Below, one piece after another: positions 4,126-38,924 of a stretch of DNA of 63,803 nt. The stretch comes from Fibrobacteria bacterium (GTDB lineage Bacteria; Fibrobacterota; Chitinivibrionia; Chitinivibrionales; FEN-1185), in the NCBI GenBank assembly GCA_037447435.1, contig JBBIGR010000029.1, positions 1 through 63,803 on the forward strand. The letters are read 5' to 3'. A program made the translations under genes and the position numbers. Under the pieces are notes generated by a model that saw only the letters and a list, made by a program, of their open reading frames with translations, was not told where the DNA came from and searched no databases. Numbering within the stretch: position 1 is the stretch's first letter; each line of letters opens with the position of its first letter.

Positions 4126-4887
4126 ATGATCAGTGTCATTGTCTGTTGCCGCCAGCCCGAGTCATGGGATTTCCATAAACGCAATGTCGAGAAAACAATC
4201 GGCTGCGAATACGAATATATCCGCGTCGATAATACGCAAAACCGATACGGAATTTGCGCAGCCTACAACGAAGGCGTAAAACGCGCCAAAGGCGATCTTT
4301 GCGTTTTTGTGCATGAAGACTGCTTTTTCATGGAAGTCGGCTGGGGAAATATTTTAAACGCCAAATTTACAGCAGATAAAAATCTCGGCCTCGTCGGCGT
4401 CGCCGGCACGCAATACCTGTTTGCCGATTCGCCTGCCTGGATCAGCGCAGGCATGCCGTTTATCCGCGGCAGGGTGGTGCATGAAATAAACAACGGTGAA
4501 ATGTTTGTTTTAACCGTTTTCTCATGGGATAAAGCCGATGCCGAAGTCGTTGCCGTCGACGGATTGTTTTTTGCGATTCCAACGAAACTGTTCGAAACCG
4601 TAAGTTTCGACGAAGTCACATTTCCGGGCTTCCATTTTTACGATCTCGACATATGCATGCAGGTTCGAAAAACGCATAAACTCCTCGTCACGTGGGACAT
4701 TTTATTGAAACATTTTTCGGGCGGCAATATGAACCAGGTGTGGCTCGATTACGGAAACAAATTCTTGGCAAAATATAAAAACGAATTACCCGCCACATGT
4801 ACCGCACTCGTTCCGGACCCTGCAAAAAACATCAAATGCCAAAGCTTCGATTTGCGTGGAAAAGCGCAATTAGGCGTTGTCGTGTAA
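4126..4887 (+). CDS. Glycosyltransferase, GT2-like
   Basis: MISVIVC, AYNEG, FVHED (DxD-like), VDGLF and FHFYDLDIC motifs. Confidence 0.85.
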   Translation: MISVIVCCRQPESWDFHKRNVEKTIGCEYEYIRVDNTQNRYGICAAYNEGVKRAKGDLCVFVHEDCFFMEVGWGNILNAKFTADKNLGLVGVAGTQYLFADSPAWISAGMPFIRGRVVHEINNGEMFVLTVFSWDKADAEVVAVDGLFFAIPTKLFETVSFDEVTFPGFHFYDLDICMQVRKTHKLLVTWDILLKHFSGGNMNQVWLDYGNKFLAKYKNELPATCTALVPDPAKNIKCQSFDLRGKAQLGVVV

Positions 4888-4944
4888 TAAGTCCAGTAGG
4901 TTTTAGGACTATACATTTTACTTTTAAGTACCTATAAAGTAAAC

Positions 4945-6174
4945 TTATCCCGGGCGAAGCATGGGGTTAGCCATTTTTAACCGTTGAATCATGGGGTCGA
5001 TTCTGGTGAGATTTTCGGTATCTGGCTGAAAAGATCTATGCTTGTCGTAATAGGCCAAGGCATTTGCGAGTTGATTACTTTCCAGGAGTTTTGTCAGGGT
5101 TTGTATGAATTCGCTATGGCCGGGCGATGGCGGAAGAGCGTCGGGCGCTTTAATAGTTTCAAACGATTCGATCTCTTTAAAATCAATAACTCGTTCATAG
5201 GGATCGCCTTGTTTGCAATACGGTAATAATAAGGCCGAAAATGCGGTAAGCAGGTTTTCTCCTGCGGAAGGCGACAAACCGTTTTCCTCGGATCTTACAA
5301 ACCGCACGATTCCGGGATTTTCCGAAAGAATGACATTGCGCCAATCAGGATTTTTAAGGCTTATTATTTCCAAAACATCCGAAAGAATGATTCGTTTTAG
5401 TGGTGGGGAAATATTGGCGTTGACAATAGTACGCATGAGATTGATAGTCAAAATCGTATAGGGCTTTGTCGGGTGGTCTTTGCTCAGAGAATTACAAACA
5501 GATTCCATTTGTTCTTTGGCGGTTCGCCCGTTTAGCCGGTAATAAAAGAGCTTTTCGGGTATAAAGTGTACGGAGCCCAAAAACATGAGCTGCATGAGCA
5601 TCACCACATCGCCGCCGTAACAATCGAGCTCCACATTCATATCGAGCAATGCCTGACGCCGGTACAATCCGTATGAATTATAACCGACATTGGTTTCATT
5701 GAAAATTGCCGCGACCCGTGAACGAAGACCCATGCCTACCGTGTGTAAGGGCGGATAGGGAAAATCGGTCGGCATAAGGTCGGGCGTGAGGAACTGCACG
5801 GCGGGTACCGCCAGCATTATTTCAGGATCGGATTCAAGAATTTTCACGCATTCGAAAAGAAACCGGGGATGCCATTGATCGTCATGAGACGACATGAGAT
5901 AATACTTGCCGGTGCCGCGATAAAAAGCGTGTCTGCCGTTATTGTTTGATCCGTAATTCTGGTCTCGGCGAATATATTGAATCCTGGAATCGCGCGACGC
6001 ATAGTCGCGGCAAAGCTGTTCGGTGCCGTCGGTTGAGGCATTGTCTGAAATGTTAAGCTCAAAGTCGCAAAATTCCTGTGCAAGCAGGGAATCGAGCGCA
6101 AGCTTCAGAAGGTCACCGCCGTTGTAAACAGGCATGCCGATGCTGACAAGCGGAGGCTTTTTTAAAGTTTCCAT
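4945..6174 (-). CDS. GT2 glycosyltransferase with C-terminal helical extension
   Basis: PLVSIGMPVYNG, ISDNASTDGT, SHDD; TGATG overlap with the upstream gene. Confidence 0.9.
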   Translation of the reverse strand: METLKKPPLVSIGMPVYNGGDLLKLALDSLLAQEFCDFELNISDNASTDGTEQLCRDYASRDSRIQYIRRDQNYGSNNNGRHAFYRGTGKYYLMSSHDDQWHPRFLFECVKILESDPEIMLAVPAVQFLTPDLMPTDFPYPPLHTVGMGLRSRVAAIFNETNVGYNSYGLYRRQALLDMNVELDCYGGDVVMLMQLMFLGSVHFIPEKLFYYRLNGRTAKEQMESVCNSLSKDHPTKPYTILTINLMRTIVNANISPPLKRIILSDVLEIISLKNPDWRNVILSENPGIVRFVRSEENGLSPSAGENLLTAFSALLLPYCKQGDPYERVIDFKEIESFETIKAPDALPPSPGHSEFIQTLTKLLESNQLANALAYYDKHRSFQPDTENLTRIDPMIQRLKMANPMLRPG

Positions 6175-7235
6175 CAGCAAATTTTTCCCCAGCGCAACGC
6201 GCAGATTTTACAATAATCGTACCCCGTTTCATCTTCAAAATCAACGTCTTTTTTCAATTCCGTATAGGACTTTGAAGCGTTCAGGGAATTGTAAATTGCG
6301 TTGCGTGCACCGCAAATCCGCGGTTCATTCCAGATTTTATACACGTCATCTTCGAAGATGTTGCCGAGTTTATATTGCTTTACGCAAACGCGGTCCAATT
6401 TGCCGTCGGCCATATACTCGATGTGATGTTCCTGCGGTTTTTCTTTGTTCAGGCTGCCGTACATGAAACAGCACGGGTAAATCTCGCCGTTGATTCCGAC
6501 CATGAGCGACGAAAACGGTTCCTGACACGGACGGGGCGACGTGATGATTTTTAAAGGATGCTGTTGATCGGGATAGTGTTCGTTAAAAGATTCGACGGTG
6601 CCGGTTCCCGGATACAAACCATTAAAACTGAATTGAAATTCTTCGCAAAATTTTGCTATTTCACCGATATACGGATATGTTTTTTTTGTTATGATACTTT
6701 GTATACCGATGCGAATATCGGCCCGCATGGATGCGAGGAGCTGAAGGTTTCTTAATACTTTGGAAACGTCTCCGCCCGGTCGCATGGCCTTATAAATTTC
6801 AGGCCTAAAGGAATCGATTGAAAACTGCACAATTGCGTTTTGCGGAAAAGCCCGGATGTTTTCCTCATTTAAAACCATGCCGTTGGTGACGATATGCAAT
6901 TGCAAACCGAGGGTCCGGACAAGAGCCATTATTTTGAACCATTCAGGATGTAAAAGAGGTTCGCCCTGCCCAATGACCACAAACCGTTGAAGCGTAGGCA
7001 CTTTGTTTAAAATGGCCTCGATCTTTTCATAGGGCATATTGTACTTCGTTAATTTGTAAACATTGCAAAGGGTGCATTTAAGGTTGCAACCCCAAAGGAT
7101 TTCCAACGACAAGGAAATCAGGTTGGGACGCGGGAGCGGTGCAATGGTTTTGAGCTGCGGCAACGGATTTGGGGCAATTCTCGTTGCACTGAGGCCTGTT
7201 GAAACAGGCGTTGATTCGCAGGTTGTGTTTTCCAT
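6174..7235 (-). CDS. Radical SAM / SPASM domain protein
   Basis: CNLKCTLC, GQGEPLLHP, VTNG, CQEPF...GEIYPCC and C-terminal CKIC. Start ATG 7235; GTG 7247 is an alternative. Confidence 0.9.
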   Translation of the reverse strand: MENTTCESTPVSTGLSATRIAPNPLPQLKTIAPLPRPNLISLSLEILWGCNLKCTLCNVYKLTKYNMPYEKIEAILNKVPTLQRFVVIGQGEPLLHPEWFKIMALVRTLGLQLHIVTNGMVLNEENIRAFPQNAIVQFSIDSFRPEIYKAMRPGGDVSKVLRNLQLLASMRADIRIGIQSIITKKTYPYIGEIAKFCEEFQFSFNGLYPGTGTVESFNEHYPDQQHPLKIITSPRPCQEPFSSLMVGINGEIYPCCFMYGSLNKEKPQEHHIEYMADGKLDRVCVKQYKLGNIFEDDVYKIWNEPRICGARNAIYNSLNASKSYTELKKDVDFEDETGYDYCKICALRWGKIC

Positions 7236-7359
7236 TTTTATGACCACCTTATAGGGTAGTTTGAAAGTTTAAAACAAGGTAACTTTACCAATGAAGTACC
7301 TATACTATTTAAATTATCGGATATCGATTAAAAAAACATAAGGAATATTTATAAGTGTA

Positions 7360-8415
7360 CTATTTCGTAATCACCAATGTCCCGTTATTATCGGCTAGCG
7401 GGACTTTCCGTAAAAAACCGCATTCCTGTTCGAATCGATGCACAGCTTTTTTGACTCCAGGCCATTGCCCATGATTGTATTCGTGGATAAAAAGGTAGCC
7501 GCCTTGTACCAATCGAGGATAAAAATAAACAAGAGACTCGTAAATCGATTCGTGAAGATCGACGTCGATGGAGACAAAAGCGAAAGTCGTTTTGTCCAGG
7601 CCTTTTGCCGATTCGGGAAAATAACCTTTCCGAATAATGCACTGTTCGGGGAAAGGCATTTTCTTAAGAACCAGTTCCACGCTGGTGTCCCGGAAACAGT
7701 TTACGTGTTCCGCGACAACGCCTTCCTTGATTTTTTCCTCGGCATATTCCTTGGTGTCGAATCCGTCGAAGGTATCGAACAGGTATAATTTTTTATCAGT
7801 AAATTTCGTATTGATAAGTGAGGCAAAATCACCACGAAATACGCCCACTTCGGCCACGGACGCCAAACGCATCTCATTTGTCGTATTGCGCAGGATCTCG
7901 TCTCCGCACAATTCGAAGGTCCGAAACCTGGTATAGTCGGATTGCATCAAACGGCGCTGCGCATCGTTTTTAGGAGGGGCATACGAGTCCCATTCCATTT
8001 TTCTATGCATGATGAAATGCGACGGATGAATGGAAAATTCGTCCCCGCCGTTTTCGTCGCAAGCGAGAATTTCATGGACGATCCGATAATTTTCGGCAAG
8101 CCCGGGCGAATCCCAGCTCAGGCCGAGCGTGAGAATTTTTTTACGGTCGATATGAAGCTGCATGGTCAGCTGTTCGTATACGTCCTGGGCATAGGGATGA
8201 ATGGTCACGAGTATGTAGTCGCAAGAATCAATAATGTCCCTGTTTCCCGGACTGTAAACCATTCGGCCGTGAAAGAGCGAACCGTGCCGCGCTGCGTCGT
8301 TGTCGAAAAGCCCGACGATCTTCACCTGCGGTTTGATCATCGTAAGTATCCGTTCGGCATTTCTGCCGCATCCCCATAGGGCAACCGTCACCATTGTCGT
8401 TTTTCCTTTCGGCAT
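7360..8415 (-). CDS. TylF/MycF family O-methyltransferase with N-terminal Rossmann-like module
   Basis: AEVGVFRG, LYLFDTFDGF, KGYFPES, FVSIDVDL; N-terminal VALWGCG...FDND. Confidence 0.88.
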   Translation of the reverse strand: MPKGKTTMVTVALWGCGRNAERILTMIKPQVKIVGLFDNDAARHGSLFHGRMVYSPGNRDIIDSCDYILVTIHPYAQDVYEQLTMQLHIDRKKILTLGLSWDSPGLAENYRIVHEILACDENGGDEFSIHPSHFIMHRKMEWDSYAPPKNDAQRRLMQSDYTRFRTFELCGDEILRNTTNEMRLASVAEVGVFRGDFASLINTKFTDKKLYLFDTFDGFDTKEYAEEKIKEGVVAEHVNCFRDTSVELVLKKMPFPEQCIIRKGYFPESAKGLDKTTFAFVSIDVDLHESIYESLVYFYPRLVQGGYLFIHEYNHGQWPGVKKAVHRFEQECGFLRKVPLADNNGTLVITK

Positions 8416-9662
8416 TATACCTTTACGATTGTTCGAACGCCGTCGACGTCCTGAATTTTACTATTCACATAAAACAACTGTTGCAGTCCGTTTTTCGCGC
8501 ACGCGGCGCAATGATCGCATGTTTCGAATCTTTTTATCAGTTCGGCAAGGGGCACATCCAAATAATTCTCCGCAATGGTCCCGCCTTCCATGTTGCAACA
8601 GGGTATGACCGATCCGTCCCATCGGACCGTGGGGAACCCTTTTTTGTTCTGGCATTTTTTAGTTGCGCGCTGGCTGTAGTTTATTTGGTCTTCGATCGAG
8701 TAGACCATATGTTCGCTGATGGCCCGCATGTTTTCCGGTATCGGTATCCCTTTGACAATAAAATTGTAAATACTTTCGGGAAAAATGTTTGCGATGATCG
8801 GAAGGAACATGAATCCCAACTCCTCAGCAATTCCCTTGACAATATCATACTCTTTTTCCATGTTGTCTTTGTAGACATGGTACACGAGCGCGATCTTGGT
8901 CGTTGCGCGATATTTGTCTATGTAGGATTTAAGGAGATACAGGTTTTCATGGAACGTTTTCCAGTTGCCGCCGGTATGATTCCGTTCATAGTGCTCGCCG
9001 GTTCCCGAACAGGGAACGCGGATGAACGCGGGCGAGGCTTCGATGACCTGTTCCAATGTCTTGACATAGTTTAAATTTGTGGAAAGTTCAACAGCGACGC
9101 CGCAGTCCTGGGCATACCGGATCATCGCAGGCAAGTCCCTGTTTAGCAGCGGTTCCCCCCAACAAAACAGCGATAAACTGGGGAAAATGGGAATTTCCGC
9201 ACGCATTTTATCGAAAATTTCTTTAAAACCGTCGAATTTCATCATGCCGGTTTTTCTCGGAACTCCCATAAATGATCCGAGATTGCATGATGCGCATTTC
9301 AGATTGCAGACCCCAGCGATTTCGATGGTCGGGTAAAGATCGCAAAACTCCAAGCCGTTGATGAAATCCACGTCTTTGACATAACCGGCATTGCCCAGAA
9401 ATGTCATGATTTCACCCATGTACTTGGACTGCGCCGCGATGATTATCAGCGGTTTTATAAAAGCGGCCTTCTCCGTAACGATGTCGGGCCTATAAATATT
9501 CGGGCCTGTTTTGCTTTTGTCAATAAAGCCGGTGACCGAAAAACCGTTTTTATTCAGATAGTCGAACCAAACGTTTCCCCGCGGCCCAGCACCGTAAATG
9601 AAAAATTCCCGGCCGTGAGACATTTCGCGCACACGGTCAAGGGTATAGGTGAATTCCTTCAT
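8415..9662 (-). CDS. Radical SAM protein (Rossmann-like + rSAM + SPASM/twitch), paralogue 1
   Basis: FIYGAG, CNLKCASC, FCWGEP, HTGGNW, C-terminal Cys set; ATGA overlap at 9659-9662. Confidence 0.88.
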   Translation of the reverse strand: MKEFTYTLDRVREMSHGREFFIYGAGPRGNVWFDYLNKNGFSVTGFIDKSKTGPNIYRPDIVTEKAAFIKPLIIIAAQSKYMGEIMTFLGNAGYVKDVDFINGLEFCDLYPTIEIAGVCNLKCASCNLGSFMGVPRKTGMMKFDGFKEIFDKMRAEIPIFPSLSLFCWGEPLLNRDLPAMIRYAQDCGVAVELSTNLNYVKTLEQVIEASPAFIRVPCSGTGEHYERNHTGGNWKTFHENLYLLKSYIDKYRATTKIALVYHVYKDNMEKEYDIVKGIAEELGFMFLPIIANIFPESIYNFIVKGIPIPENMRAISEHMVYSIEDQINYSQRATKKCQNKKGFPTVRWDGSVIPCCNMEGGTIAENYLDVPLAELIKRFETCDHCAACAKNGLQQLFYVNSKIQDVDGVRTIVKV

Positions 9663-10903
9663 AGTGGTTTCTCTTTTCTTCGCATTAGTACATCGACGTC
9701 CAGTCTGTGCAGCCCATTTTCCTGACATTCCCGACATTGCCCGGCGCTATGCCGCACCGTAAGAAGGTCGGGCCAGGAAATTGTCAGATAGCTTTCGGCA
9801 ATCACCGGTCCGAAATAGGTATGGCAAAGCGACACGGAAGTGTCCCAATTTATTATCGGAAAAATCCTTTGACATAAACAGGGATTTTCCCTGTCTTTTT
9901 TGGCCAAATCCAGCATTTCATCAAGATCCCAATCCTGCTTTTTCATTTCACTTTGTACTATTTCCGAAACATTACATTTGCGCGTGTATTGTAAATAATG
10001 CTCGTACGGGTTAACATATCCGTGGCCAAAACAAACTTCGAAACCCAATTGTGATGCAATTTGCTTTAACTGATTAATTTCATTGGAGTTAGCGACATAA
10101 TCGTATGCAATTATCCGAATAGTTGTTTTGCTTTGGCATCTATCTCTTTGTAGGGCAAGTTCATACAAATTTTTTTCGAATATATCCCAAGAAGCGCCTT
10201 TCATATTGATTTCATACGATTTTTTAAAACCGTTGACCGTAATATGCAATTGGCTGGGATTAGCCTGAATAACAGGGGAAATCATTTCGGTAATCTGCAG
10301 GTTCGTAGAAACCGTACACGGTATTTTTCTTTCCGTAACTCTAATTATTTCAGGAAGTTGCGGATTACAGAAAGGTTCACCCCATGTATATAATTCAATA
10401 TGAGTGAGATTTGGAATATCACTTTGTAATTTATCGAATACTTTGATATATGTCTCTAACGACATATTTCCGCCGGATTTTACCCCGTTAAAATTTCCTC
10501 TGGGGCAGCTGAGGCAGGAAATAGTACACATTCCCGAAACATCAATTGCGGCAGCAGGCCGTGAAATTTGAAAATGCGTTATATAAGAAACCATTTTTTC
10601 TTTGCCGTATGCTTGACACATTGCAACGGCGGCATCCCGAACCGAAAGGTTTGCGATTATTATAAATGAAGATGGGTCTTTTACAATTTGCTCGGCAAAT
10701 AAAACAGGGAGATTGCCAACGCATGTTCCAGCCTGGGAAATTCTTCCGTCCAAAAAGCCGGTTACGGGTATTCCGGATTTTTTCAAACTAAGGAGTACGC
10801 TGCATCCGAGCGGACCGCTTCCCCAAATATACACATCACGGTGTTGAGTAATTATTGCAAGTTGTTCAGTCGATAATCCCTGCAAAGTATGTAATGGAAT
10901 CAT
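9659..10903 (-). CDS. Radical SAM protein, paralogue 2
   Basis: YIWGSG, CTISCLSC, YTWGEP, CRECQENGLHR; start ATG 10903 with AAGAGG RBS. Confidence 0.88.
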   Translation of the reverse strand: MIPLHTLQGLSTEQLAIITQHRDVYIWGSGPLGCSVLLSLKKSGIPVTGFLDGRISQAGTCVGNLPVLFAEQIVKDPSSFIIIANLSVRDAAVAMCQAYGKEKMVSYITHFQISRPAAAIDVSGMCTISCLSCPRGNFNGVKSGGNMSLETYIKVFDKLQSDIPNLTHIELYTWGEPFCNPQLPEIIRVTERKIPCTVSTNLQITEMISPVIQANPSQLHITVNGFKKSYEINMKGASWDIFEKNLYELALQRDRCQSKTTIRIIAYDYVANSNEINQLKQIASQLGFEVCFGHGYVNPYEHYLQYTRKCNVSEIVQSEMKKQDWDLDEMLDLAKKDRENPCLCQRIFPIINWDTSVSLCHTYFGPVIAESYLTISWPDLLTVRHSAGQCRECQENGLHRLDVDVLMRRKEKPL

Positions 10904-10916
10904 TACCAAAAACCTC

Positions 10917-12080
10917 TTATGCCCGTGAAAGAAGTATGGAATAAATTGCGTTTGCGGTAATATCTCTGTTTTCACCGAGCTTTGGCTGATTTTCGGATTC
11001 ATACGATTTCGCAATAAAGCGGGCCGCGGTTTCGCCGTGAATGTCGTAATCCGAAAAGCGGACTCCCATGCCGATTTTTCTGAAAAAATTCTCTGTTGCC
11101 AGAATCGCATTGCGGGCGATCTCATCTTTAGTTCCGGTAAGTTGCCAAACCCGCTCACCGAATTGTGCCAATTTTTCTTTTTTCTTTTCCAACTCGTAGG
11201 ACCAAACGCCGGGAAGAACTATTGCCAGAGTTGCGGCATGATCAAGGTTATAGGCGGCAGTCAATCGATGACCGATATCGTGTGTGGACCAGTCCATTAT
11301 AACACCGCGATTTATCGCTCCGTTTAATGCTTGCGCAGCACACCACATCATGTTTGCGCGAGAATTGTAATCGTTTGGTATGGCCAAAACATTGTCGGCA
11401 ATTTCAATGATGGTCAAAAGCAATGCCTCGGCCTGTCTGTCCTGAAGCAAAGAATTATTGGGAATTGTCACGTATTGTTCAAGGACATGAACGAAAATAT
11501 CCACAAGCCCGTTTCGGAGTTGCCGTTGCGGCAAAGAATAGGTCGCTTCCGGATCAAGAACGCTGAATAAAGGATAGACGCAAAAATTTCCGCAAGTAAG
11601 CTTTTCCCGTGTTTCGGTCCGGCTAAGAACAAAGCCGTTGTTCATTTCGGAACCTGTAGCAGGAATTGTGAGAACGGTTCCGATAGGCAAGGCCTTTAAC
11701 GGAGCTTTGCGGTTGTCCTTCATCATTTCCCAAGGAGAATCGCTCTCCGGGTAAAAATAAGCAAGGGCAATAAATTTTGCAGCATCTATAACCGATCCTC
11801 CGCCCACAGCAAGAATAAAAGATATTTGGTTCTTTCGAACAAATTCCAAAGCTTCCATACATTTTTCAAAAGTCGGATTTGCCGGGATGCCGCCAAATTC
11901 CAACACACAAAACCCTGAAAGCGCCTTCATAACCTGCTCATAAACGCCGTTTGTTAAAATCGATCCGCCGCCATATAGGACCAAAATTTTGGAATCGGCA
12001 GGAATTTCGGCGCCGATTTTGGCGATCATTCCTTTACCGAAAAGGATTTTAACCGGATTTCTGAAGATAAAGTTGTTCAT
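10917..12080 (-). CDS. Iron-containing alcohol dehydrogenase (YqhD/Bdh-like)
   Basis: MNNFIFRNP..ILFGKG, YGGGS, GGGSVIDAAK, PATGSEMN, metal ligands in D...H, HDIGH and LDHA. Confidence 0.92.
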   Translation of the reverse strand: MNNFIFRNPVKILFGKGMIAKIGAEIPADSKILVLYGGGSILTNGVYEQVMKALSGFCVLEFGGIPANPTFEKCMEALEFVRKNQISFILAVGGGSVIDAAKFIALAYFYPESDSPWEMMKDNRKAPLKALPIGTVLTIPATGSEMNNGFVLSRTETREKLTCGNFCVYPLFSVLDPEATYSLPQRQLRNGLVDIFVHVLEQYVTIPNNSLLQDRQAEALLLTIIEIADNVLAIPNDYNSRANMMWCAAQALNGAINRGVIMDWSTHDIGHRLTAAYNLDHAATLAIVLPGVWSYELEKKKEKLAQFGERVWQLTGTKDEIARNAILATENFFRKIGMGVRFSDYDIHGETAARFIAKSYESENQPKLGENRDITANAIYSILLSRA

Positions 12081-12123
12081 GTTTTTGGTAAATTCCGATC
12101 ACCGGTAGTGGTGTAAGGTATAA

Positions 12124-12145
12124 AAACCACCGTATACGGTGGTTT
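12124..12145 (-). promoter_or_regulatory. Perfect 22-bp palindrome in the leader of the left operon (attenuator-like hairpin or operator)
   Basis: AAACCACCGTATACGGTGGTTT, ending in TTTTT on the minus strand about 40 nt before the ADH start. Confidence 0.5.
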
Positions 12146-12389
12146 CGTCAATCGATATGCGAGTTGTTGACTAATGATATAGACGTCGTATTTTAATGTA
12201 TCGGATTTTTATGGAAAAAACATAAGCCATATTTAAAAAATAAAAGTATCATAAGAAAAGGCATACCAACGACAAAGCTCATTTTTGTCTAAATATTTTT
12301 TTTCAATATTCCGATAGAATAAATATATATATAAAAGAAGTTGAAAATTCTCCGGCCTGTTTTTTAAAACATGCGGGAAAGGGGTTCAA

Positions 12390-13163: not shown

Positions 13164-13185
13164 AACAATAAGGGCGTTACAAAGC

Positions 13186-14244: not shown

Positions 14245-14256
14245 CGTGGAAAACGT

Positions 14257-15709: not shown

Positions 15710-15729
15710 GGGGCGAACAAGGAACAATT

Positions 15730-17004: not shown

Positions 17005-17010
17005 TAGAGT

Positions 17011-18261: not shown

Positions 18262-18270
18262 GGAACATAT

Positions 18271-22284: not shown

Positions 22285-22317
22285 ACGATATAAAAAGTGT
22301 GAAAAAGGATCCTTGTC

Positions 22318-23739
22318 ATGCGAATACTGTTGATTTCATCGTATACCTTGTCCGATGTTTCACGCGTGGACATCGCGCCGCCGCTATCGCTACTGTATAT
22401 ATCGGCCGCGTTGCGAAAGGGCGGACACGAGCCCATCCTTTGCGACCTGACGCCGCTTATCGTTCCGCACGGCATGGACCGCGAAACGTTTTACCACGAC
22501 CATATCATGAAAATGTTTTCCGACATTAAGCCCGATGCGGTGGGACAAAATTGCTTTTTGTCGGTACATTTCGGTTTTGTCAGGAAAATCGCCAAGTCGG
22601 TCAAGGCGATTTCGCCGGATATTCCGTTTATCATCGGCGGCATCCATCCGACCCTGTTCGCGCAGGATATTATCGCCCATTGCCCTGAAATAGATTTCAT
22701 CATCGTGGGAGAGGGCGAAAAACAATCGCTTATGCTGGTGAATGCGTTGGCGCAAAATAAACCGCGAAAATTCGATTCGATTCCGTCCATCGCGTTTCGG
22801 GATGAAAATAATACACCGGTACTGACCGCGCGAAGCGGCTACGAAGAACGGCTCGACGATTGCGCTCCGCCGGCATGGGATCTTGTGAATGTCAAAGCCT
22901 ATTATACCGACCATTCGAAATGGTATAACCCGAAAAACCTCGATATCAAAATGTCGGTTCCCATTCTCACGAGCCGAAGCTGTCCGTACGATTGCAATTT
23001 CTGTTCCGCCCATTCCATGATGGGTCGGGGTTTGCGAATGCATAGCCCGCAGCGCGTCGTGGATGAAATGGAACTGTTGTATAACGAATACGGCCTCAAC
23101 TATTTCGGCTTTGTCGACGATAATTTGACCCTGAACAAAAAGCACATTCTTGCCATTTGCGACGGCATAGTCAAACGGGGATTGAACATTCAATTCGAAT
23201 CGTTCAACGGGTATAACATCGCTTCCATGGACGAGGAAATCGTGAGCGCCATGTGCGCGGCAGGCTGCGTATACGTCATCATGCCGATCGAACACGGGTC
23301 CGATTACATGCGCAATAAAATCATCGGCAAGCATTTGCCGCGGGAAAAAATTTACAGCCTCGCGCAAATTTACAAAAAGCATAATCTGCTCACGCGCGGC
23401 GTTTTCATCATGGGTTTTCCCGAAGACACGAAAGAGACCTTGAACGACACCTACCGGATGATGCTGGATTTGCAGCTTGATTTATACAACGTTTTTACCC
23501 TTATTCCGTTTCCCGGCACAAAGGTATTTGATCAGGCGATGAGAGACAAGCTCCTTATCAATGAGGTTGCGAAAGAAAAATTATGGGAAGGAACGCTTGA
23601 ACTCAATGCCCTACATGCGCAGGTGTTTTTGAAACCGTACAACTTGTCGCTTGAAGAAATGGCGCAGTTCAGGGAAACGTTCGATGCCATGCGGATCTTT
23701 TCGGATCGTGCCAAAAAGCTCCAGGGAAAAAACGCATGA
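22318..23739 (+). CDS. Cobalamin-binding radical SAM protein (class B methyltransferase-like)
   Basis: PPLSLLYISA, GGIHPT, GEGE, TSRSCPYDCNFC, FVDDN, FIMGFP, PFPGT. Confidence 0.92.
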   Translation: MRILLISSYTLSDVSRVDIAPPLSLLYISAALRKGGHEPILCDLTPLIVPHGMDRETFYHDHIMKMFSDIKPDAVGQNCFLSVHFGFVRKIAKSVKAISPDIPFIIGGIHPTLFAQDIIAHCPEIDFIIVGEGEKQSLMLVNALAQNKPRKFDSIPSIAFRDENNTPVLTARSGYEERLDDCAPPAWDLVNVKAYYTDHSKWYNPKNLDIKMSVPILTSRSCPYDCNFCSAHSMMGRGLRMHSPQRVVDEMELLYNEYGLNYFGFVDDNLTLNKKHILAICDGIVKRGLNIQFESFNGYNIASMDEEIVSAMCAAGCVYVIMPIEHGSDYMRNKIIGKHLPREKIYSLAQIYKKHNLLTRGVFIMGFPEDTKETLNDTYRMMLDLQLDLYNVFTLIPFPGTKVFDQAMRDKLLINEVAKEKLWEGTLELNALHAQVFLKPYNLSLEEMAQFRETFDAMRIFSDRAKKLQGKNA

Positions 23740-24932
23740 GCAACCCAAACCCGGATCGCCGTAATTGCCCGCTGTGCGGAAAACAGGATAAGGTTACCAT
23801 TCTTAACTTGCGGTATTCGCTGTTCGACGATAATCCGCTCACCAGAGAATTCGCTTTGGTTGCGTGCGGGAATTGCGGTTTTGCCTATGCCGACACGCCG
23901 TCTCAAGAGGCCGAATTCGAAGCGTATTATGCGCAAAACGCCTACTACTTTACCGCTGTAACAACGGGTTCCGGCGGAAGCAGTGACGCCGATAAAAAGC
24001 GCTTTACCGAAACAGCCGACTGCATTGCCGCGCATGTAGGAAATAAAACCGTATCCGTTTTCGATATCGGAAGCGGAAAAGGCGGGCTTCTTGCGACATT
24101 AAGGGAAAAAGGCTTTTCACATGTTTACGCTATAGATCCTTTGAAGGCGTGCGTTGATTACATGGAAAAAAATCTGGCGATTCCCGCACAATGCGGAAAG
24201 GCGAACTGCCTTGGTTTTAAGAACATTGTTGCTGGTTGTTGCATATATTCGCATGTTTTGGAACATGTACTCGATCCCAGAGCGGTTTTGGAAGAAGCCT
24301 GGCGCAGGCTTGACGAACAAGGGTTGGTGTACGTCGAGGTTCCTAACGCATCGCAGTACGGCAGCAATACGAATGTCCCGTATGCCGAACTGTACGTGGA
24401 ACACATAAATCATTTCGATATGGCTCATTTAAAAAGCCTTTTGTCAGCCTGCGGATTTGCACCGATCGAAACGGGTAATAAACTCATTGATATCGGCGAA
24501 GGCGGACAAACCGCATGCCTGTACGGCGTTTTCGGAAAAGTGGCAAAAAAAGATACGGTACCGGCGTATAACGGGGATTTGTATGCTACTTTAAAAACCT
24601 ATGCGTCGCGATGCGAGGCAAGCCCGATGCACGAAAAAATCCGGGCCGCATGGGAAAGTTCTCAACCGTTGTATGTGTGGGGTCTGTCGCAATTCGGGCA
24701 ACTATTGCTTGGCCAGACAAATCTCGGAAAATGCAATATCAAAGCTTTTGTCGACGGCGATTCGTATAAGCAAACTAAGACCATCGGAAAAAAGGCCATT
24801 GTATCGCCGGAGGCTCTTCGCGATGCGACCGCCAGCGACGGTATTGTCCTTACGGGAATCAATTACCAAAAGCAGATGCGCGATTTTTTAAAACAAATCA
24901 ATTTTAAAGGTAAAGAAATTATTTTAGTGTGA
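23736..24932 (+). CDS. Class I SAM methyltransferase, sugar C-methyltransferase-like architecture
   Basis: CPLC...CGNCG zinc site, DIGSGKG, HVLEH, EVPN, EHINHF, C-terminal YVWG module. Confidence 0.85.
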   Translation: MSNPNPDRRNCPLCGKQDKVTILNLRYSLFDDNPLTREFALVACGNCGFAYADTPSQEAEFEAYYAQNAYYFTAVTTGSGGSSDADKKRFTETADCIAAHVGNKTVSVFDIGSGKGGLLATLREKGFSHVYAIDPLKACVDYMEKNLAIPAQCGKANCLGFKNIVAGCCIYSHVLEHVLDPRAVLEEAWRRLDEQGLVYVEVPNASQYGSNTNVPYAELYVEHINHFDMAHLKSLLSACGFAPIETGNKLIDIGEGGQTACLYGVFGKVAKKDTVPAYNGDLYATLKTYASRCEASPMHEKIRAAWESSQPLYVWGLSQFGQLLLGQTNLGKCNIKAFVDGDSYKQTKTIGKKAIVSPEALRDATASDGIVLTGINYQKQMRDFLKQINFKGKEIILV

Positions 24933-25062
24933 AATGAGCGCCACCAATTCACCCAAAATGGCGCAATAAGTTTAAAAAAAGATATATTAATATAATCACT
25001 CCAAGACCGGGCCAAAGTCCAAAAGAGCAATGGGTGTTGAATATTTCGGCGGAACGGATTTT

Positions 25063-25356
25063 ATGAAAAAGCTATCTGAAATAATTGAAATTTTACATAC
25101 ACACTCAGATGAAATGCGTAAACGTTATGGTATTGTAAACCTTGCGGTTTTTGGATCCGTAGCTCGAGGTGAGGCCACTGAGGGTAGCGATGTTGATGTG
25201 TTAGCCACTATCGAAAAATCAATAAGCTTATTGGATATTATTGATGCAGAATACTATCTCGGGGAATTGTTAGGTGCAAAAGTTGACCTTGTACCTGCAA
25301 GGAGTGTACGACCGGAGTTAAGAAAACAAATATTTAATGAGGCCGTGCCAGTATGA
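25063..25356 (+). CDS. MntA-like nucleotidyltransferase antitoxin
   Basis: FGSVARGEATEGSDVDVL, LGAKVDLV. Confidence 0.9.
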   Translation: MKKLSEIIEILHTHSDEMRKRYGIVNLAVFGSVARGEATEGSDVDVLATIEKSISLLDIIDAEYYLGELLGAKVDLVPARSVRPELRKQIFNEAVPV

Positions 25357-25697
25357 AACGTGATGTAACTCTCTACTTGGCGGATATTTTAGAGAACATG
25401 GACGATGCGGTTACTTTTATTGAAGCAATTTCATTTGATACTTTTGTAAATGACAAGAAAACAATAAATGCGGTCGTTCGATCACTGGAAATAATTGGTG
25501 AAGCATCGAAACATGTTCCTGAAGAAATAAGATTAAAGAAGCCAGATGTTCCCTGGAAAAACATGGCCGGATTGCGGGATAGATGCATTCACGGTTACAT
25601 CGGAATAGATTATGAAATGATATGGAATGTAATAAAAATCGATATTCCTAGAATCCGTTTATCAATCCAATCACTGCTCATTGAATTGCGAGGATAG
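25353..25697 (+). CDS. HepT-like (DUF86) ribonuclease toxin
   Basis: AVVRSLEIIGEA, PWKNMAGLRDRCIHGY (RX4HXY); ATGA overlap with the MNT gene. Confidence 0.92.
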   Translation: MKRDVTLYLADILENMDDAVTFIEAISFDTFVNDKKTINAVVRSLEIIGEASKHVPEEIRLKKPDVPWKNMAGLRDRCIHGYIGIDYEMIWNVIKIDIPRIRLSIQSLLIELRG

Positions 25698-25768
25698 CGT
25701 ATAATGCTACTCTTGCCCGTATCAATTCCGTAATAATTTATTTCTGTCTTAATGTTTGGAAAAAGGTA

Positions 25769-26974
25769 ATGAACATCACAACCAAACGTAAATGTCCCTT
25801 ATGCGGCAAAACCGGCGCAATACTTTACAAATCCATGAAAATCGCGGATTTTGACGGCGAAAACCCGTTATGCGATTTCTCGGTTGTCGGCTGCAACTGC
25901 GGGTTTATTTTCAACGATTTGGCCGCAACGCGCAGCGATATAGAAAATTTTTACAATAAGAACGAATTATATCCATCGGAAATGGGCGTTGGATCGGGCG
26001 GCTCTTCGATGCTCGATAAGGAACGCTATGCCGAGGCGCTTGAATTTATTGCCCCGTATTTACCGAAAGGCAAACAATCGGTTTTGGCCGATGTCGGCTG
26101 TGCAAAGGGCGGTTTTTTAAGCTATTTAAAGGACAACGGTTTTACCGATCTGGGTGCCGTTGATTTGAGCCCGGTCATGATAGAATCTATTGTAAATAAC
26201 ATCGGGATACGGGGAAATCAGGGTTCTGCGGATTCGCTCGGTTTGCCTTCCGAATCTGCGGAGGTTTTAGTGTACAGTAATATCCTGGAACATTTGTACG
26301 ATCTGGATCCGGTTGTCGTTGAAGCCAAGCGGGCGATTTCGAAAACCGGTATCGTTGTGGTCGAAGTGCCGGATGCGAGCAGGTACGCAGAATCGCGCAT
26401 TGCGGATTTTTACTGGTTCAGCCAATGCGAACATATAAATCATTTCGATGCGCATTCATTACAACGGCTTTTTAGCAAACACGGTTTTTCGCTTATAGCA
26501 ATACAGTCCACATTCATGCGTTTGGGCATAGAGGCGAAAATGCCGGTAATACGCGCGGTTTTTGCCTTCGGTGAAAATAACCGGATTTTGGAAATGAACC
26601 CGGGAAAAAACAAAGCGCTGACGGCATATATAGATCAGGAAGAGAAAAGCCTGTTTGGCCACAAACAGCAAATAAAATCGCTCAAAGAAAACAGGACCCC
26701 CGTTTATATTTGGGGCCGCGGCCTCGAGCTGCAATGCCTTTATTCGGAAGGGGGCTTGCGCGATTGTTTTATACGATGTATTATCGATAAGAACCCGGTA
26801 AAACAGGGACCGACCATAGACGGACTCATGGTTTCGTCGCCGTCATGCCTTGCAAACGCGGATGCGGGAACTGCCGTCGCAATCACGTCCGCGTTGCATC
26901 ATAAGAGTATGACCGAGCATTTGCAAACTATACAATATCCGGGCCAGATTGTGTATTTAGTGCCTATACTATAA
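25769..26974 (+). CDS. Class I SAM methyltransferase, paralogue of 23736-24932
   Basis: CPLC...CNCG, GSGGSS, DVGCAKG, NILEH, EVPD, EHINHFD, C-terminal YIWG module. Confidence 0.85.
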   Translation: MNITTKRKCPLCGKTGAILYKSMKIADFDGENPLCDFSVVGCNCGFIFNDLAATRSDIENFYNKNELYPSEMGVGSGGSSMLDKERYAEALEFIAPYLPKGKQSVLADVGCAKGGFLSYLKDNGFTDLGAVDLSPVMIESIVNNIGIRGNQGSADSLGLPSESAEVLVYSNILEHLYDLDPVVVEAKRAISKTGIVVVEVPDASRYAESRIADFYWFSQCEHINHFDAHSLQRLFSKHGFSLIAIQSTFMRLGIEAKMPVIRAVFAFGENNRILEMNPGKNKALTAYIDQEEKSLFGHKQQIKSLKENRTPVYIWGRGLELQCLYSEGGLRDCFIRCIIDKNPVKQGPTIDGLMVSSPSCLANADAGTAVAITSALHHKSMTEHLQTIQYPGQIVYLVPIL

Positions 26975-27013
26975 AGTACCTACGCTTTTTGCGACCTATT
27001 GAAAGGTTATTTC

Positions 27014-27748
27014 ATGGATCCAATTGCCGAATTTAAACAGGAATGCAAAGACCGCATTGCTTCGTATCCGTCCGATAAACCGTTGCAAGCGTCCGGAAAA
27101 AGCTTTTTGTCCGAAACGTTGCGAACGAAATACAGTTACAATTTTACCTGGATGGGACGGCCTATCATCCAATATCCGCAGGACATGGTGGCAATGCAGG
27201 AAATCATCTGGAAAGTAAAGCCTGATTGCATCATCGAAATCGGCATTGCGCACGGCGGATCGCTGATTTTTTCGGCGTCGATGCTTGAACTTTTGGGAAA
27301 CGATGGTCGCGTCATCGGGGTCGACGTTGACATACGCAAACACAACCGCGCGGAAATAGAAAAACACCCGATGTTCAAACGCATTTCCATGATCGAAGGG
27401 TCGAGTGTCGACGATGCCGTTGCCGCACAGGTGCGAAATCTTGCGAAAACGCATAAAACGATTCTGGTGAGCCTCGATTCCGACCATACGCATGCGCATG
27501 TTTTGCGCGAACTCCAATTGTATGCGCCGCTCGTCTCGGTCGGCAGTTATTGCGTGGTATTCGACGGTATCATCGAAGATATGCCCGACGGCTTTTATGC
27601 CGATCGCCGCTGGGGACCGGGCAACAATCCGAAAACGGCGGTTTGGGAATACATGAAGACCAACGATTCGTTTGAAATCGATACGGAAATCGAGGCTAAG
27701 CTCGTTGTCACGGCTGCGCCGTCGGGATATTTGAAACGGATAAAATGA
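27014..27748 (+). CDS. CmcI/cephalosporin hydroxylase family methyltransferase
   Basis: YSYNFTWMGRPIIQYPQD, IIEIGIAHGGS, LDSDHTHAHVLREL, WGPGNNPKTAV. Confidence 0.92.
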   Translation: MDPIAEFKQECKDRIASYPSDKPLQASGKSFLSETLRTKYSYNFTWMGRPIIQYPQDMVAMQEIIWKVKPDCIIEIGIAHGGSLIFSASMLELLGNDGRVIGVDVDIRKHNRAEIEKHPMFKRISMIEGSSVDDAVAAQVRNLAKTHKTILVSLDSDHTHAHVLRELQLYAPLVSVGSYCVVFDGIIEDMPDGFYADRRWGPGNNPKTAVWEYMKTNDSFEIDTEIEAKLVVTAAPSGYLKRIK

Positions 27749-27760
27749 AAAGGACTCACT

Positions 27761-28495
27761 ATGTCGTACATCGATCCCAATGCAGAAGAAAGTTTTTTCG
27801 TCCGTCAAAAGGAAATCCTGTCCCGGCTTGGCATAAAAGAATCGCCTAACATTTTTGACGTCGGCGGAAACATCGGACAAAGCATCGATGCGTATAGAAA
27901 ATTATTTCCCGCAGCCGCGATCACGACATTCGAGCCGTTGCCCGACTGTTTTTCGACATTGCGGCAAAATTACGGATCGGTGCCGGGAATAAAACTCGAA
28001 AATTGCGCGCTCTCGAAACAAAACGGAAGCATGCCGTTTTATTCGACGAAATGCCGCGCGGCGTCGTCGTTGTTTCCGCCGGATGAAGCGGTTCAAAAGA
28101 AAAGCGTCAAAGGCAATTACGATTACGACCGCATTACGGTTTGCGTTGAAACGCTCGACGATTATTGCCTTGCGAAAAAAACGGGAATGATAGATATATT
28201 GAAAATAGATGTCCAGGGTGCGGAACTCGATGTTTTGATCGGCGCGAGAAAATTATTGACGGAAAACAGAATCCGTTTCATATATGTCGAGGTGATTTTC
28301 GCCGACAATTACAAAGGACAAAGCGACGTGTTTGCGCTGGCCGCATTCCTTGCGCAGTACAAATATATCCTGTGGGACATCCGGCCGTTTTTATTCACCA
28401 AAAGCGGCAGGCTGTGGACGGCCAATGCGATGTTTGCCTCGGACCCGACAAGGGAAACTTTGGAAAATTGCACGGAAGAATTTCCCGTCACCTAA
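27761..28495 (+). CDS. FkbM family methyltransferase
   Basis: IFDVGGNIG, FEP, TLDDY, LKIDVQGAELDVL. Confidence 0.92.
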   Translation: MSYIDPNAEESFFVRQKEILSRLGIKESPNIFDVGGNIGQSIDAYRKLFPAAAITTFEPLPDCFSTLRQNYGSVPGIKLENCALSKQNGSMPFYSTKCRAASSLFPPDEAVQKKSVKGNYDYDRITVCVETLDDYCLAKKTGMIDILKIDVQGAELDVLIGARKLLTENRIRFIYVEVIFADNYKGQSDVFALAAFLAQYKYILWDIRPFLFTKSGRLWTANAMFASDPTRETLENCTEEFPVT

Positions 28496-28507
28496 GAAAA
28501 GAAATCG

Positions 28508-29827
28508 ATGACAATACAAACAAAGCCCTCGTCGCTTCGCGTGCTGTTTCAAAACAGGCCGGGACTTAAACAGCAGCCGGGCGGTGACACGGTTGTCATG
28601 GACAACCATCAAAAATATTTGGAATCGCAAGGACATATAGTCGATGTCAATTCCGATCCCCGGTGCGACCTGAGTTCATACGATATCGTGCATCTGTACA
28701 ATCTCACGCTGCCCGCGCTTACCGATCCGTTTGCAAAAAATACGGTACTGCAAACAAAACCGTTTGTCGTGACCTCGCTGCAGGAAGATTTTCCCTTGTA
28801 TATTAACAAATGCATCGTCGTGATGCAATTGTTCCAAATGTATTTGCAAAACGGGCAGAGAAAAGACGTGTGGCAAAAAGGCATGGATTTTATTGCGCAA
28901 TCGCCCCCCGCCCCCTGCGAACTCACCACGTCGCCGTTTGCCGTGGAATATGCCGACCGCCTGTTGACTTGCGGCGATACCGAGGCGAAATTCATTAAAA
29001 GCCGCTTTCCGAAGGCAAAATGCGAGACGGTTTTTTTCGGGTCCACGATTAAAGAATCGACCGTCGGCCCGGAATTGTTCCAAGAGCAATTCGGCGTGCG
29101 CGACTTCGTGTTGTGCGTGGGCAGGATCGAAATGCGCAAAAATCAACTTATGCTTCTTAAGGCCCTGGAGGACGACGACGTCCCGCTCGTGTTCGCGGAC
29201 GGCGGTTTTTCTTATCAGCCGGGTTATGTCGATTTGTGCAGGAATTTCAAACGCAAGGGCAAAACGATTTTTACCGGCCGTTTATCGCACGATGCGCTGA
29301 TATCGGCATTTAGGGCCGCCTCGGTCCATTGCCTTCCGTCATGGTATGAATTGCCCGGTCTGGTTACGCTTGAAGCCGCCCGCTACGGCAGCCGCATCGT
29401 GGCTTCGTCGTGGGGTGCGATCGGCGATTATATGAAAGATACGATAACCTATTGTCAACCTGACAGCAGCGAATCGATACGCAATGCGATTTTTAATGCC
29501 ATGGCTTTGCCAAACGATGCGAAACAAAAGGATTTGGGCTCCAGTTATACGTGGGAAAAAAGCGGAGAACATTTGGTTTCGGTGTATACCAATGCGATCG
29601 ACGCTTACGACGCGTCGGCGATAAAAGCCCTTGGCCAAAGCGGAATATTCGATTCGCCGCTCAATGCCGTGGATTTTTTACAAAGGGTGACCGGTCTTGT
29701 GGAAGCGGGGAAAAATAAAGACGCAATAGCGTTTTTCGACGCCTACCGGAAAACATTTCAAAATATGCCCGATTTGGAGAGATTCGACGCCTTAATCGCC
29801 CGGTTAAAAACAACCGTCCGTTATTAA
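28508..29827 (+). CDS. GT4 glycosyltransferase with C-terminal helical extension
   Basis: PGGDTV, VGRIEMRKNQ, LPSWYELPGLVTLEAA, YTWEK. Confidence 0.9.
   Translation: MTIQTKPSSLRVLFQNRPGLKQQPGGDTVVMDNHQKYLESQGHIVDVNSDPRCDLSSYDIVHLYNLTLPALTDPFAKNTVLQTKPFVVTSLQEDFPLYINKCIVVMQLFQMYLQNGQRKDVWQKGMDFIAQSPPAPCELTTSPFAVEYADRLLTCGDTEAKFIKSRFPKAKCETVFFGSTIKESTVGPELFQEQFGVRDFVLCVGRIEMRKNQLMLLKALEDDDVPLVFADGGFSYQPGYVDLCRNFKRKGKTIFTGRLSHDALISAFRAASVHCLPSWYELPGLVTLEAARYGSRIVASSWGAIGDYMKDTITYCQPDSSESIRNAIFNAMALPNDAKQKDLGSSYTWEKSGEHLVSVYTNAIDAYDASAIKALGQSGIFDSPLNAVDFLQRVTGLVEAGKNKDAIAFFDAYRKTFQNMPDLERFDALIARLKTTVRY

Positions 29828-37053: not shown

Positions 37054-38920
<1,867 letters not shown>

Positions 38921-38924
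<4 letters not shown>

Follow-up and report, generated by a model that had tools for sequence, protein, structure and literature searches.

A widespread cassette of radical SAM paralogs within a Fibrobacteria locus, very probably tailoring a CDP-sugar for a surface glycan

The window analysed here is the whole of contig JBBIGR010000029.1 (C29; 63,803 nucleotides) of the 5.05-Mb, 99.6% complete genome of a Fibrobacteria bacterium (GCA_037447435.1); positions 4126-29827 carry a locus of eight radical S-adenosylmethionine (rSAM), five methyltransferase and four glycosyltransferase genes (two GT2 and two GT4 by Pfam) in two divergent operons, as called from an open reading frame (ORF) listing and from Pfam and NCBIfam scans of the window. 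The CxxxCxxC motif is present in all eight rSAM proteins (RS1 to RS8), each of which matches PF04055, seven of them above its cut-off and RS5 below it (26.9 versus 29.5 bits). No other part of the genome is as dense: among its 84 ORFs of at least 250 amino acids with CxxxCxxC, eight lie in a single 18-kb stretch of this locus and the runner-up stretch holds four. Alignments and gene junctions point to true starts later than those of the longest ORF for RS2 (9662), RS3 (10903), RfbG (13186), RS4 (15730), RS7 (19511) and GT4a (20785), and with these corrected starts 8 of 23 junctions overlap. The original prediction, made from the letters of the window, had described two divergent, packed operons with overlapping junctions that encode eight CxxxCxxC proteins, TylF, CmcI, FkbM and two zinc-containing methyltransferases, RfbF, RfbG, RfbC, a short-chain dehydrogenase/reductase (SDR), an iron-containing alcohol dehydrogenase (Fe-ADH) and four glycosyltransferases, and all of this content was recovered. 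It had also reported missing functions, and indeed no ORF of 4126-29827 matches a flippase, polymerase, ABC, initiating transferase, aminotransferase, polyketide synthase, nonribosomal peptide synthetase or phosphoenolpyruvate mutase family in the Pfam and NCBIfam scans; the exporter and initiating transferase typical of a Wzx/Wzy or ABC O-antigen cluster are accordingly not matched at the locus. Of 22 locus enzymes tested, none contains a segment hydrophobic enough to pass the transmembrane threshold, a promoter scan of the divergent gap found 3 sites against 1.8 +/- 1.5 in shuffles, and no RNA holder is listed for RS4 to RS6.

The right operon, on the plus strand, starts with a CDP-sugar entry: RfbF (12390..13163), a glucose-1-phosphate cytidylyltransferase, and RfbG (13186..14244), a CDP-glucose 4,6-dehydratase, both exceed the cut-offs of their families (TIGR02623, 433 bits, cut-off 300; TIGR02622, 441 bits, cut-off 278) and precede an RfbC/RmlC-like epimerase (14257..14832; TIGR01221, 174 bits, cut-off 156) and the SDR (14810..15709; PF01370), likely a 4-ketoreductase, for which no solved relative was found at E<=1e-10. 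These are followed by the rSAM genes RS4 (15730..17004), RS5 (17011..18261), RS6 (18271..19533) and RS7 (19511..20788), of which RS4, RS6 and RS7 are core paralogs 1, 2 and 3 and RS5 is optional, by GT4a (20785..22284), the signature GT4 of the cassette family, and by RS8 (22318..23739), a B12-binding rSAM protein. The operon continues with MT1 (23736..24932), which fold and profile place as a divergent C3-type C-methyltransferase of nucleoside diphosphate (NDP) sugars, its paralog MT2 (25769..26974; 32% identity), a member of the CmcI/rhamnosyl O-methyltransferase family (27014..27748; PF04989), an FkbM-family O-methyltransferase (27761..28495; Pfam and NCBIfam) and the accessory glycosyltransferase GT4b (28508..29827).

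It is the right operon that is conserved beyond this genome. Its core is taken as rfbF-rfbG-rfbC-reductase-RS4-(RS5)-RS6-RS7-GT4a, then a B12-rSAM gene and C- and O-methyltransferases, with gene co-occurrence followed by tblastn; relative loci are labelled L###, genomes G### and contigs of the source genome C##. From a scan of species-representative genomes, the best 80 of 526 matching stretches gave 42 loci, 30 of them with at least two of RS4, RS6 and RS7 (the core loci) and 12 with full flanks. Among these 12, RS4, RS6, RS7, GT4a and an MT1-type enzyme are present in all, FkbM in 11, RS8, rfbC and SDR in 10, and rfbF, rfbG and CmcI in 9, and an independent metagenome scan with GT4a (best 80 of 283 relatives) gives the same picture of the gene set; within the 30 core loci, an SDR ortholog occurs in 25 and RS5 in five. 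The order RS4-RS6-RS7-GT4a is kept in 45 of the 46 loci holding all four genes (25/26 from genomes and plasmids, 20/20 from metagenomes), a rearranged plasmid being the one exception. Cassette clades span at least five phyla (Fibrobacterota, Myxococcota, Thermodesulfobacteriota, Pseudomonadota and Planctomycetota), and L002, the nearest of the named cassettes, belongs to a Chitinispirillaceae metagenome-assembled genome with core genes at 52-74% identity. Distribution is patchy, with the GT4a family in 11 of 296 genomes of the phylum and none of five congeners, the full RS4-RS7 set in 1 of 40 relatives, and further copies on plasmids. This patchiness, the plasmid-borne copies and the grouping of the paralogs by position (see below) suggest horizontal spread of the unit, so that the right operon would be a horizontally mobile unit with a separate task for every paralog. 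The original prediction of an undescribed route to a heavily modified CDP-derived sugar or glycan is thus supported for the right operon, which is co-conserved across genome and metagenome loci, the check that had been proposed for it, and for which the family, fold and literature searches gave no characterised pathway; it does not hold for the whole 26 kb as one route, since the left operon includes an accessory insertion (Fe-ADH, RS3, RS2 and TylF) and RS5 is optional. Two relatives deserve separate mention: L001 (CP026658.1), a plasmid (65 kb) from a gut deltaproteobacterium in culture, has six family rSAMs, RS8, MT1, GT4a and CmcI in rearranged order, all except CmcI annotated as hypothetical, and in L002 (5226-6600) rfbF abuts rfbC without rfbG, which lies on another contig of that genome.

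RS2 to RS7 are full-length paralogs of one family (27-48% identity), of which no further full-length copy was found elsewhere in the genome; the predicted count of eight rSAM enzymes therefore stands, not as eight unrelated enzymes, six of them being members of this family. All six begin with a Rossmann-like domain of about 110 residues, continue with the rSAM core and carry four C-terminal (twitch) cysteines, C344, C361, C391 and C394, invariant in 128/128 aligned relatives, which would hold one auxiliary [4Fe-4S] cluster in what we take to be the BtrN-type ligand pattern. AbmM-like sulfur insertion, which needs an open auxiliary-cluster site, was set aside because all four auxiliary cysteines are invariant. 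The N-terminal domain matches nucleotide-binding Rossmann domains (3nkl, Rex, VioB, WbaP, Pcryo_0637 and an FkbM N-terminal domain). The fold comparison was made for RS6 only: its AlphaFold2 model (pLDDT 96, pTM 0.94) has a partial TIM-barrel rSAM fold, and the top rows are all rSAM proteins, with SuiB (Z 18.9), anSME (18.8), BlsE (18.1), DesII (17.1) and BtrN (14.9) at 12-19% identity; the top match reaches Z 18.9 with an rmsd of 3.6 over 255 aligned residues. As SPASM/twitch rSAM proteins are matched this broadly, the fold leaves the reaction unnamed. No named rSAM equivalog of NCBIfam reaches its cut-off (best 46-90 bits versus 380 for TIGR04317, the tungsten-cofactor maturase row; BlsE 26.5 versus 400, AprD4 86 versus 500, BchE 193 versus 481), and the identity of a maturase of peptides synthesised on ribosomes and modified after translation (RiPPs) or of metalloenzymes was rejected on the grounds of a generic SPASM/twitch likeness, scores far under the cut-offs and a context devoid of precursor-like genes. 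A library clustered at 50% holds 542 relatives at E<=1e-30; in the Atlas clusters, 12-34% of members have PF22674, and for the first two clusters "hypothetical protein" is the only name.

A tree of 110 proteins, built by a quick method with support values not derived from bootstrapping, groups the paralogs by position and not by genome (support 99 for RS4, 99 for RS5, 88 for RS6 and 86 for RS7), and median identity is 45-51% within these clades versus 35-39% between them. The RS4, RS6 and RS7 clades each have their own conserved polar residues, among them an extra Cys349 in 47/50 RS6 members and an extra Cys411 in 48/53 RS7 members. Sequence comparison thus marks RS4, RS6 and RS7 as anciently separated clades within a single unnamed family (Rossmann, rSAM core and four-cysteine twitch). 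This bears on the idea that redundancy or decay explains the expansion to six paralogs, with no pathway behind it, to which the optional RS5, the three RS4-like copies in L024 and the loss of the catalytic motif among RS3 relatives would lend themselves; with clades that cross phyla, a fixed order, distinct conserved residues and CxxxCxxC intact in every RS4 (51/51), RS6 (50/50) and RS7 (53/53) member, we regard it as highly improbable. Two rSAM proteins stand apart from the family. RS1 (6174..7235, minus strand) is an rSAM-SPASM/twitch protein distant from RS2-RS7, and its 91% ortholog abuts rfbF in L072. In RS8 a B12-binding domain (PF02310, 70 bits) precedes the rSAM domain (PF04055, 62 bits), and this architecture makes it a likely class B (cobalamin) rSAM C-methyltransferase; the source genome has 16 more matches to RS8, B12-type rSAMs of 19-28% identity, on 12 other contigs including C1, C16 and C23.

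The two methyltransferases MT1 and MT2 (METHYLTRANSFERASES) link the cassette to sugar chemistry. At positions 77-382, a profile built from 31 MT1/MT2 sequences matches MtmC, TcaB9 and KijD1 and brings the His and Glu-His motifs into register: H177 and H223 are invariant and E222 is kept in at least 90% of the 31 sequences, aligned to the MtmC motifs, and the titles of TcaB9 mutant structures name H181, E224 and H225. For the MT1 model (pLDDT 93), MtmC, KijD1 and TcaB9 fill the 17 best rows (E<=2.4e-19, TM about 0.7; next row 1e-10), and the three-domain fold of zinc finger, SAM domain and C-terminal Rossmann domain is recovered for MT1 by the model and for MT2 by 32% identity. Profile and model therefore indicate that both work like NDP-sugar C-methyltransferases without being canonical members of that family, which would make them part of the tailoring at the nucleotide-sugar stage; the two zinc methyltransferases of the original prediction are present, and their sugar C-methyltransferase fold had escaped it.

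GT4a defines a wider class of cassettes. Once ten near-duplicate loci are excluded, 74 of 81 GT4a-family genes have an rSAM gene within 7 kb, and of the seven that do not, five are on loci of at most 5.1 kb and two on 20-kb loci. The partner is the RS4/RS6/RS7 triad in 37 cases, a second rSAM subfamily in 16 and a third in 12; 8 have B12 enzymes alone and 1 has a mixture. The second subfamily is that of the 36-kb plasmid of Brachyspira hyodysenteriae, with 43-67% identity in other GT4a loci. On this plasmid, pBHWA1, the block BHWA1_02676-02683 (NC_012226) has orthologs of rfbF (53%), rfbC (43%), SDR (26%) and GT4a (34% over 432 amino acids) next to a run of five rSAM paralogs, and its glycosyltransferase nests among type-B cassettes. 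These rSAM proteins are unlike RS2-RS7 in belonging to another subfamily, of about 335 amino acids and without the N-terminal domain, at 18-31% local identity, and the plasmid lacks any ortholog of rfbG, the C-methyltransferases, the B12-rSAM or the O-methyltransferases; an initial supposition of orthology between the six paralogs and the plasmid rSAMs was thus rejected, as only the frame genes match. By order and annotation in the accessible parts of La et al. 2014, the orthologs of rfbF, rfbC, SDR and GT4a are genes 14-16 and 18 of that study, in which genes 13-16 occur in 6/6 virulent and 0/8 low-virulence strains with function unassigned, the four genes missing from low-virulence strains being a glycosyltransferase, an epimerase, rfbC and one rSAM (PMC4267127). 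As far as the available text of a 251-genome study goes, genes of this block are confined to certain lineages (PMC12131820), so that the link to virulence is to be read as a correlation. Some members of the GT4a class differ in layout. In the B. hyodysenteriae plasmid locus L054 an rSAM gene (18925-20028) lies between rfbF and rfbC, the usual place of rfbG, with no close homolog in the 39 GT4a loci with room for one; in L083 and L108, where the twitch triad is missing, GT4a has two or three B12-type rSAMs and two MT1-type enzymes on its flanks; and in L158-L162, L178 and L179, from the same phylum but a different family, fusions of GT4a to TPR and GT2 domains are frequent, two of these loci, extended to 20 kb, showing no adjoining rSAM gene.

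The rest of the locus is composite. The close relative L072 (72-97% protein identity), in which RS1 adjoins rfbF and MT1 adjoins MT2, reveals by DNA alignment two insertions, one of 4.8 kb at 7351-12171 and one of 0.8 kb at 24934-25767. The larger lies between imperfect direct repeats of about 110 bp (left copy in the upstream region at 7240..7350, right copy at 12120..12235) that are a single copy in L072; the right copy holds a perfect 22-bp palindrome (12124-12145), possibly an operator or hairpin, of which the left copy and L072 have degenerate versions. It contains, all on the minus strand, a TylF-family O-methyltransferase with an N-terminal Rossmann-like module (7360..8415; absent from L072), RS2 (8415..9662), RS3 (9659..10903), in which CxxxCxxC is intact, and the YqhD-like Fe-ADH (10917..12080), which scores under the equivalog cut-off. 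This block accompanies the core in 0/30 genome loci and in one metagenome locus (L085); RS3 and RS2 are direct neighbours in L037, L041, L043 and L085, as are Fe-ADH and RS3 in L035, L041 and L175, so that it appears to be a module of its own. CxxxCxxC has been lost in 16 full-length representatives of the family, all RS3-like (16/29 versus 0/67 of the others); in an alignment of 33 RS3 members, the four twitch cysteines are kept in 33/33 and QRIFP/HRLD in most, and the motif is lost in 16/33, in at least four events on well-supported branches. Because motif loss is repeated while the auxiliary cysteines stay, RS3 likely has a role independent of SAM cleavage. A prediction of an RS2 and RS3 complex scored 0.00 in two runs with controls not folded and speaks neither for nor against binding, and no RS3 relatives were found in viral contigs. 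The smaller insertion is an MntA/HepT-like toxin-antitoxin pair (25030..25697, plus strand), outside the pathway and absent from L072, with GC content at third codon positions of 0.28-0.33 versus 0.5-0.6 for neighbouring genes; this interruption of the right operon had gone unmentioned. At the left edge, GT2a (4126..4887, plus strand) is an accessory PF13712-type glycosyltransferase whose 45% ortholog adjoins rfbF in L002, and GT2b (4945..6174, minus strand) has, by Pfam and paralog comparison, a C-terminal helical domain in common with GT4b. GT4b is 82% identical to its counterpart in L072 and 53% identical to the C-terminal part of a 1127-amino acid protein in locus L173, from a same-family genome, which fuses a family rSAM with GT2b- and GT4b-like domains; this fusion ties the outer glycosyltransferases to the rSAM system, and a TPR identity of the glycosyltransferase C-terminal tails was not established. 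Elsewhere in the window lie a lone MntA-like nucleotidyltransferase (3451-3804) with no HEPN partner among ORFs of at least 90 amino acids, a complete N-ATPase-type operon (37054-43723; beta, AtpI-like, AtpR, a, c, b, alpha and gamma by Pfam) and a minus-strand run (56015-63790) with proteins of 965 and 182 amino acids that both lack a Pfam match, a pair of DUF362 proteins, of which one has a Tat signal, and a membrane polyferredoxin.

As to where the sugar goes, related loci point to flagellin. Among the 27 GT4a genomes (31 were searched), seven have a flagellin-family gene on the same contig within about 16 kb of the cassette, about 20-fold more than the 0.35 expected under a crude uniform model; the genomes are not independent (two of the seven are Competibacteraceae), and short contigs hide links. 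The linked gene is FliC in six of the seven, with FliD seen in five of those six, and FlgL in the remaining one; in several of these loci the interval between cassette and flagellin holds large GT2 or GT41-type enzymes. RS3-RS2 sits inside a fliC island in L174, and a set of CDP-sugar, C3-methyltransferase and rSAM genes in another in L176. The source genome has 11 flagellin-family matches, all on other contigs; on C38, a GT2 about 1 kb after one flagellin gene is 38% identical to a fliC-adjacent glycosyltransferase and is a candidate for a flagellin-priming enzyme, and GT2a is 28% identical to the glycosyltransferase just upstream of fliC in L060. The likely destination is protein or flagellin glycosylation in the cytoplasm, which would explain the missing export genes, an absence that the original prediction had reported correctly without seeing this destination.

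The product class, a tailored CDP-sugar for a surface glycan, is very probable. The reading that we prefer, and to which we give an even chance as a whole chain, is that the mobile cassette makes a C-methylated CDP-6-deoxyhexose that is reshaped by radical chemistry and transferred by GT4a to a protein O-glycan, with flagellin as the main target. RfbF and RfbG, whose chemistry is established, would yield CDP-4-keto-6-deoxyglucose, the family assignments being computed; MT1 (and MT2) would C-methylate the keto sugar, RfbC epimerise it and the SDR reduce C4, at positions and in an order that are provisional. RS4, RS6, RS7 and the optional RS5 would then act once each, in series, on the CDP-linked sugar, held by the N-terminal Rossmann domain, and the fully cysteine-ligated auxiliary cluster would serve as an electron relay, as in BtrN, described in the accessible parts of the sources as a two-cluster radical dehydrogenase (PMC2996862, PMC13598754). 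RS4 might be a dehydrogenase and RS6 and RS7, with their extra cysteines, might be epimerases as in NeoN, in which Cys249 is the hydrogen donor according to the portion available (PMC10991966); these assignments are of low certainty, and we have little confidence in the exact reaction of any single rSAM enzyme. GT4a would move the product onto a glycan begun by the GT2 enzymes, RS8 would add a radical C-methyl group, and CmcI and FkbM would add O-methyl groups. The Fe-ADH, RS3, RS2 and TylF block could contribute a further radical-then-reduce step like that of AprD4/AprD3, with RS3 as a non-radical Fe-S partner; AprD4/AprD3 and GenK/GenD1 are established systems in the part of the source at hand (PMC13707489).

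Several observations weigh against this reading. We infer all of the cassette chemistry; MT1 and MT2 miss the cut-off of Pfam Methyltransf_14 (16-17 versus 23.5 bits) and a canonical C3-methyltransferase lies next to MT1 in L011, L029 and L128, so that the carbon methylated by MT1 is not fixed at C3. The nearest solved sequence to RS8 is the dehydratase AprD4. A Cys411-like residue also occurs in RS4, though in only 28/51 members, and the extra cysteines of RS6 and RS7 are no more than candidate active-site residues. The N-terminal domain matches the NAD(H)-binding Rex as well as the NDP-sugar-binding VioB and is also found on O-methyltransferases. Among 15 long relatives chosen from 150, six carry TPR and two glycosyltransferase domains, and such fusions, like that of L173, fit rSAM action on a protein-linked glycan after transfer. 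On that account, GT4a would move a plain C-methyl-6-deoxyhexose, RS4, RS6 and RS7 would oxidise, epimerise or cross-link the glycan, and the N-terminal domain would serve for docking or as an NAD(H) sensor; glycosides are the substrates of NeoN and AprD4, as far as the consulted part of the source goes (PMC13707489), and a GT4a that stays recognisable while its rSAM partners swap among three subfamilies is easier to understand with an unchanged donor. However, the rSAM genes lie between the nucleotide-sugar genes and GT4a in those 45 of 46 loci and the N-terminal domain does resemble NDP-sugar-binding domains, so we consider action after transfer unlikely, if well short of negligible.

Other points against the preferred reading concern the acceptor. 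No flagellin gene was matched on C29, which lacks the adjacency of a flagellar island; a flagellin match is absent in 6 of the 27 cassette genomes; in G054 and G055, large single-contig assemblies, flagellin lies megabases from the cassette; and Wzx flippases adjoin the cassette in L003, L026 and L138. Together with an ABC-type export ATPase in L145 and the proposal of lipooligosaccharide or protein glycosylation for the Brachyspira block, as given in the accessible text (PMC4267127), this could mean that in the source genome a modified sugar or cap from the cassette goes to a lipopolysaccharide O-antigen or capsule assembled by a cluster elsewhere, and not to protein. Set against the flagellin linkage above expectation, the four soluble glycosyltransferases with no membrane protein at the locus and the GT4a fusions to TPR and GT2 domains in relatives, this destination has a rather low probability. 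A free small-molecule glycoside or nucleoside-like metabolite would agree with the antibiotic pathways to which all of the characterised sugar rSAM look-alikes (BtrN, BlsE, DesII, AbmM, SpeY and AprD4) belong and with a cassette that is patchy and plasmid-borne; it is nevertheless quite improbable, with no aglycone, exporter or resistance family matched at the locus and with flagellar, protein-glycosyltransferase and Wzx genes as neighbours of related loci.

The component superfamilies and their setting are already known, and there is a real chance of new chemistry. To our knowledge, nearly all known sugar-acting rSAM enzymes come from antibiotic pathways, in which they usually number one or two; here an unnamed rSAM family forms a fixed triad in surface-glycan loci of at least five phyla, from which three or more new radical sugar reactions and a new monosaccharide are likely. 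Open full-text literature, with most subscription journals and supplements outside the search, gave no description of the cassette or of the rSAM family beyond the Brachyspira marker genes. A bolder proposal, which we hold tentatively and would sooner doubt than believe, is that RS4, RS6 and RS7 form a radical assembly line to an undescribed sugar skeleton (ring-contracted, carbocyclic, C-C-extended or spiro-ketal), that GT4a marks a class of rSAM-plus-GT4 cassettes with swappable radical modules including the Brachyspira block, and that RS3 is a repeatedly evolved SAM-independent Fe-S pseudoenzyme; if true, anaerobes would be able to make exotic surface glycans without oxygen. The RS3 clade, in which the SAM motif was lost repeatedly and the auxiliary cluster kept, is a natural experiment on the role of the twitch cluster, and the shared GT4a-SDR-rfbC-rfbF frame offers a biochemical hypothesis for a swine-dysentery virulence marker whose function has been unassigned since 2014. 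The question is directly testable, given the standard CDP-glucose entry with its upstream enzymes and the named culture-collection strains that carry the cassette (L007 and L011).

In comparison with known systems, the entry resembles the Salmonella/Yersinia rfbFGHI pathway to 3,6-dideoxyhexoses, with RfbF and RfbG followed by an epimerase and a reductase; RfbH (E1) and RfbI (E3) of that pathway are not matched at the locus. The CDP-cereose operon of Bacillus cereus reportedly combines the RfbF and RfbG entry with an epimerase, a reductase and a C3-methyltransferase and decorates protein, and we know of no CDP-deoxysugar pathway, whether to 3,6-dideoxyhexoses or to cereose, that uses rSAM enzymes. 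Flagellar glycosylation islands, a well-known general class, have in common with the cassette the soluble nucleotide-sugar enzymes, the methyltransferases and, in seven relatives, a large GT2/TPR or GT41 enzyme beside fliC-fliD; unlike them, the C29 copy is not beside fliC, and the open literature searched yielded no such island containing a series of rSAM genes. MT1 shares with TcaB9, KijD1 and MtmC the zinc, SAM and Rossmann domains and the aligned His and Glu-His motifs, and differs by an identity of only 15-19% and by its CDP, not dTDP, context. The twitch rSAM sugar enzymes BtrN (a dehydrogenase), NeoN and HygY (epimerases), SpeY, BlsE, AbmM and DesII are the best sequence and fold neighbours of the RS family, with an rSAM core and one C-terminal auxiliary-cluster motif, and RiPP or protein maturases and viperin score equally in the fold search (Z 17-19); the family is set apart by an identity of 11-19%, by its additional N-terminal Rossmann domain and by a run of three to six paralogs in series in a surface-glycan and not an antibiotic context. 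AprD4 is not a homolog of RS2 or RS3, and RS8 scores 86 bits versus the NF033070 cut-off of 500; the AprD4/AprD3 pair of radical dehydratase and reductase, as presented in the available part of the source, is nonetheless a possible model for RS2 and Fe-ADH (PMC13707489).

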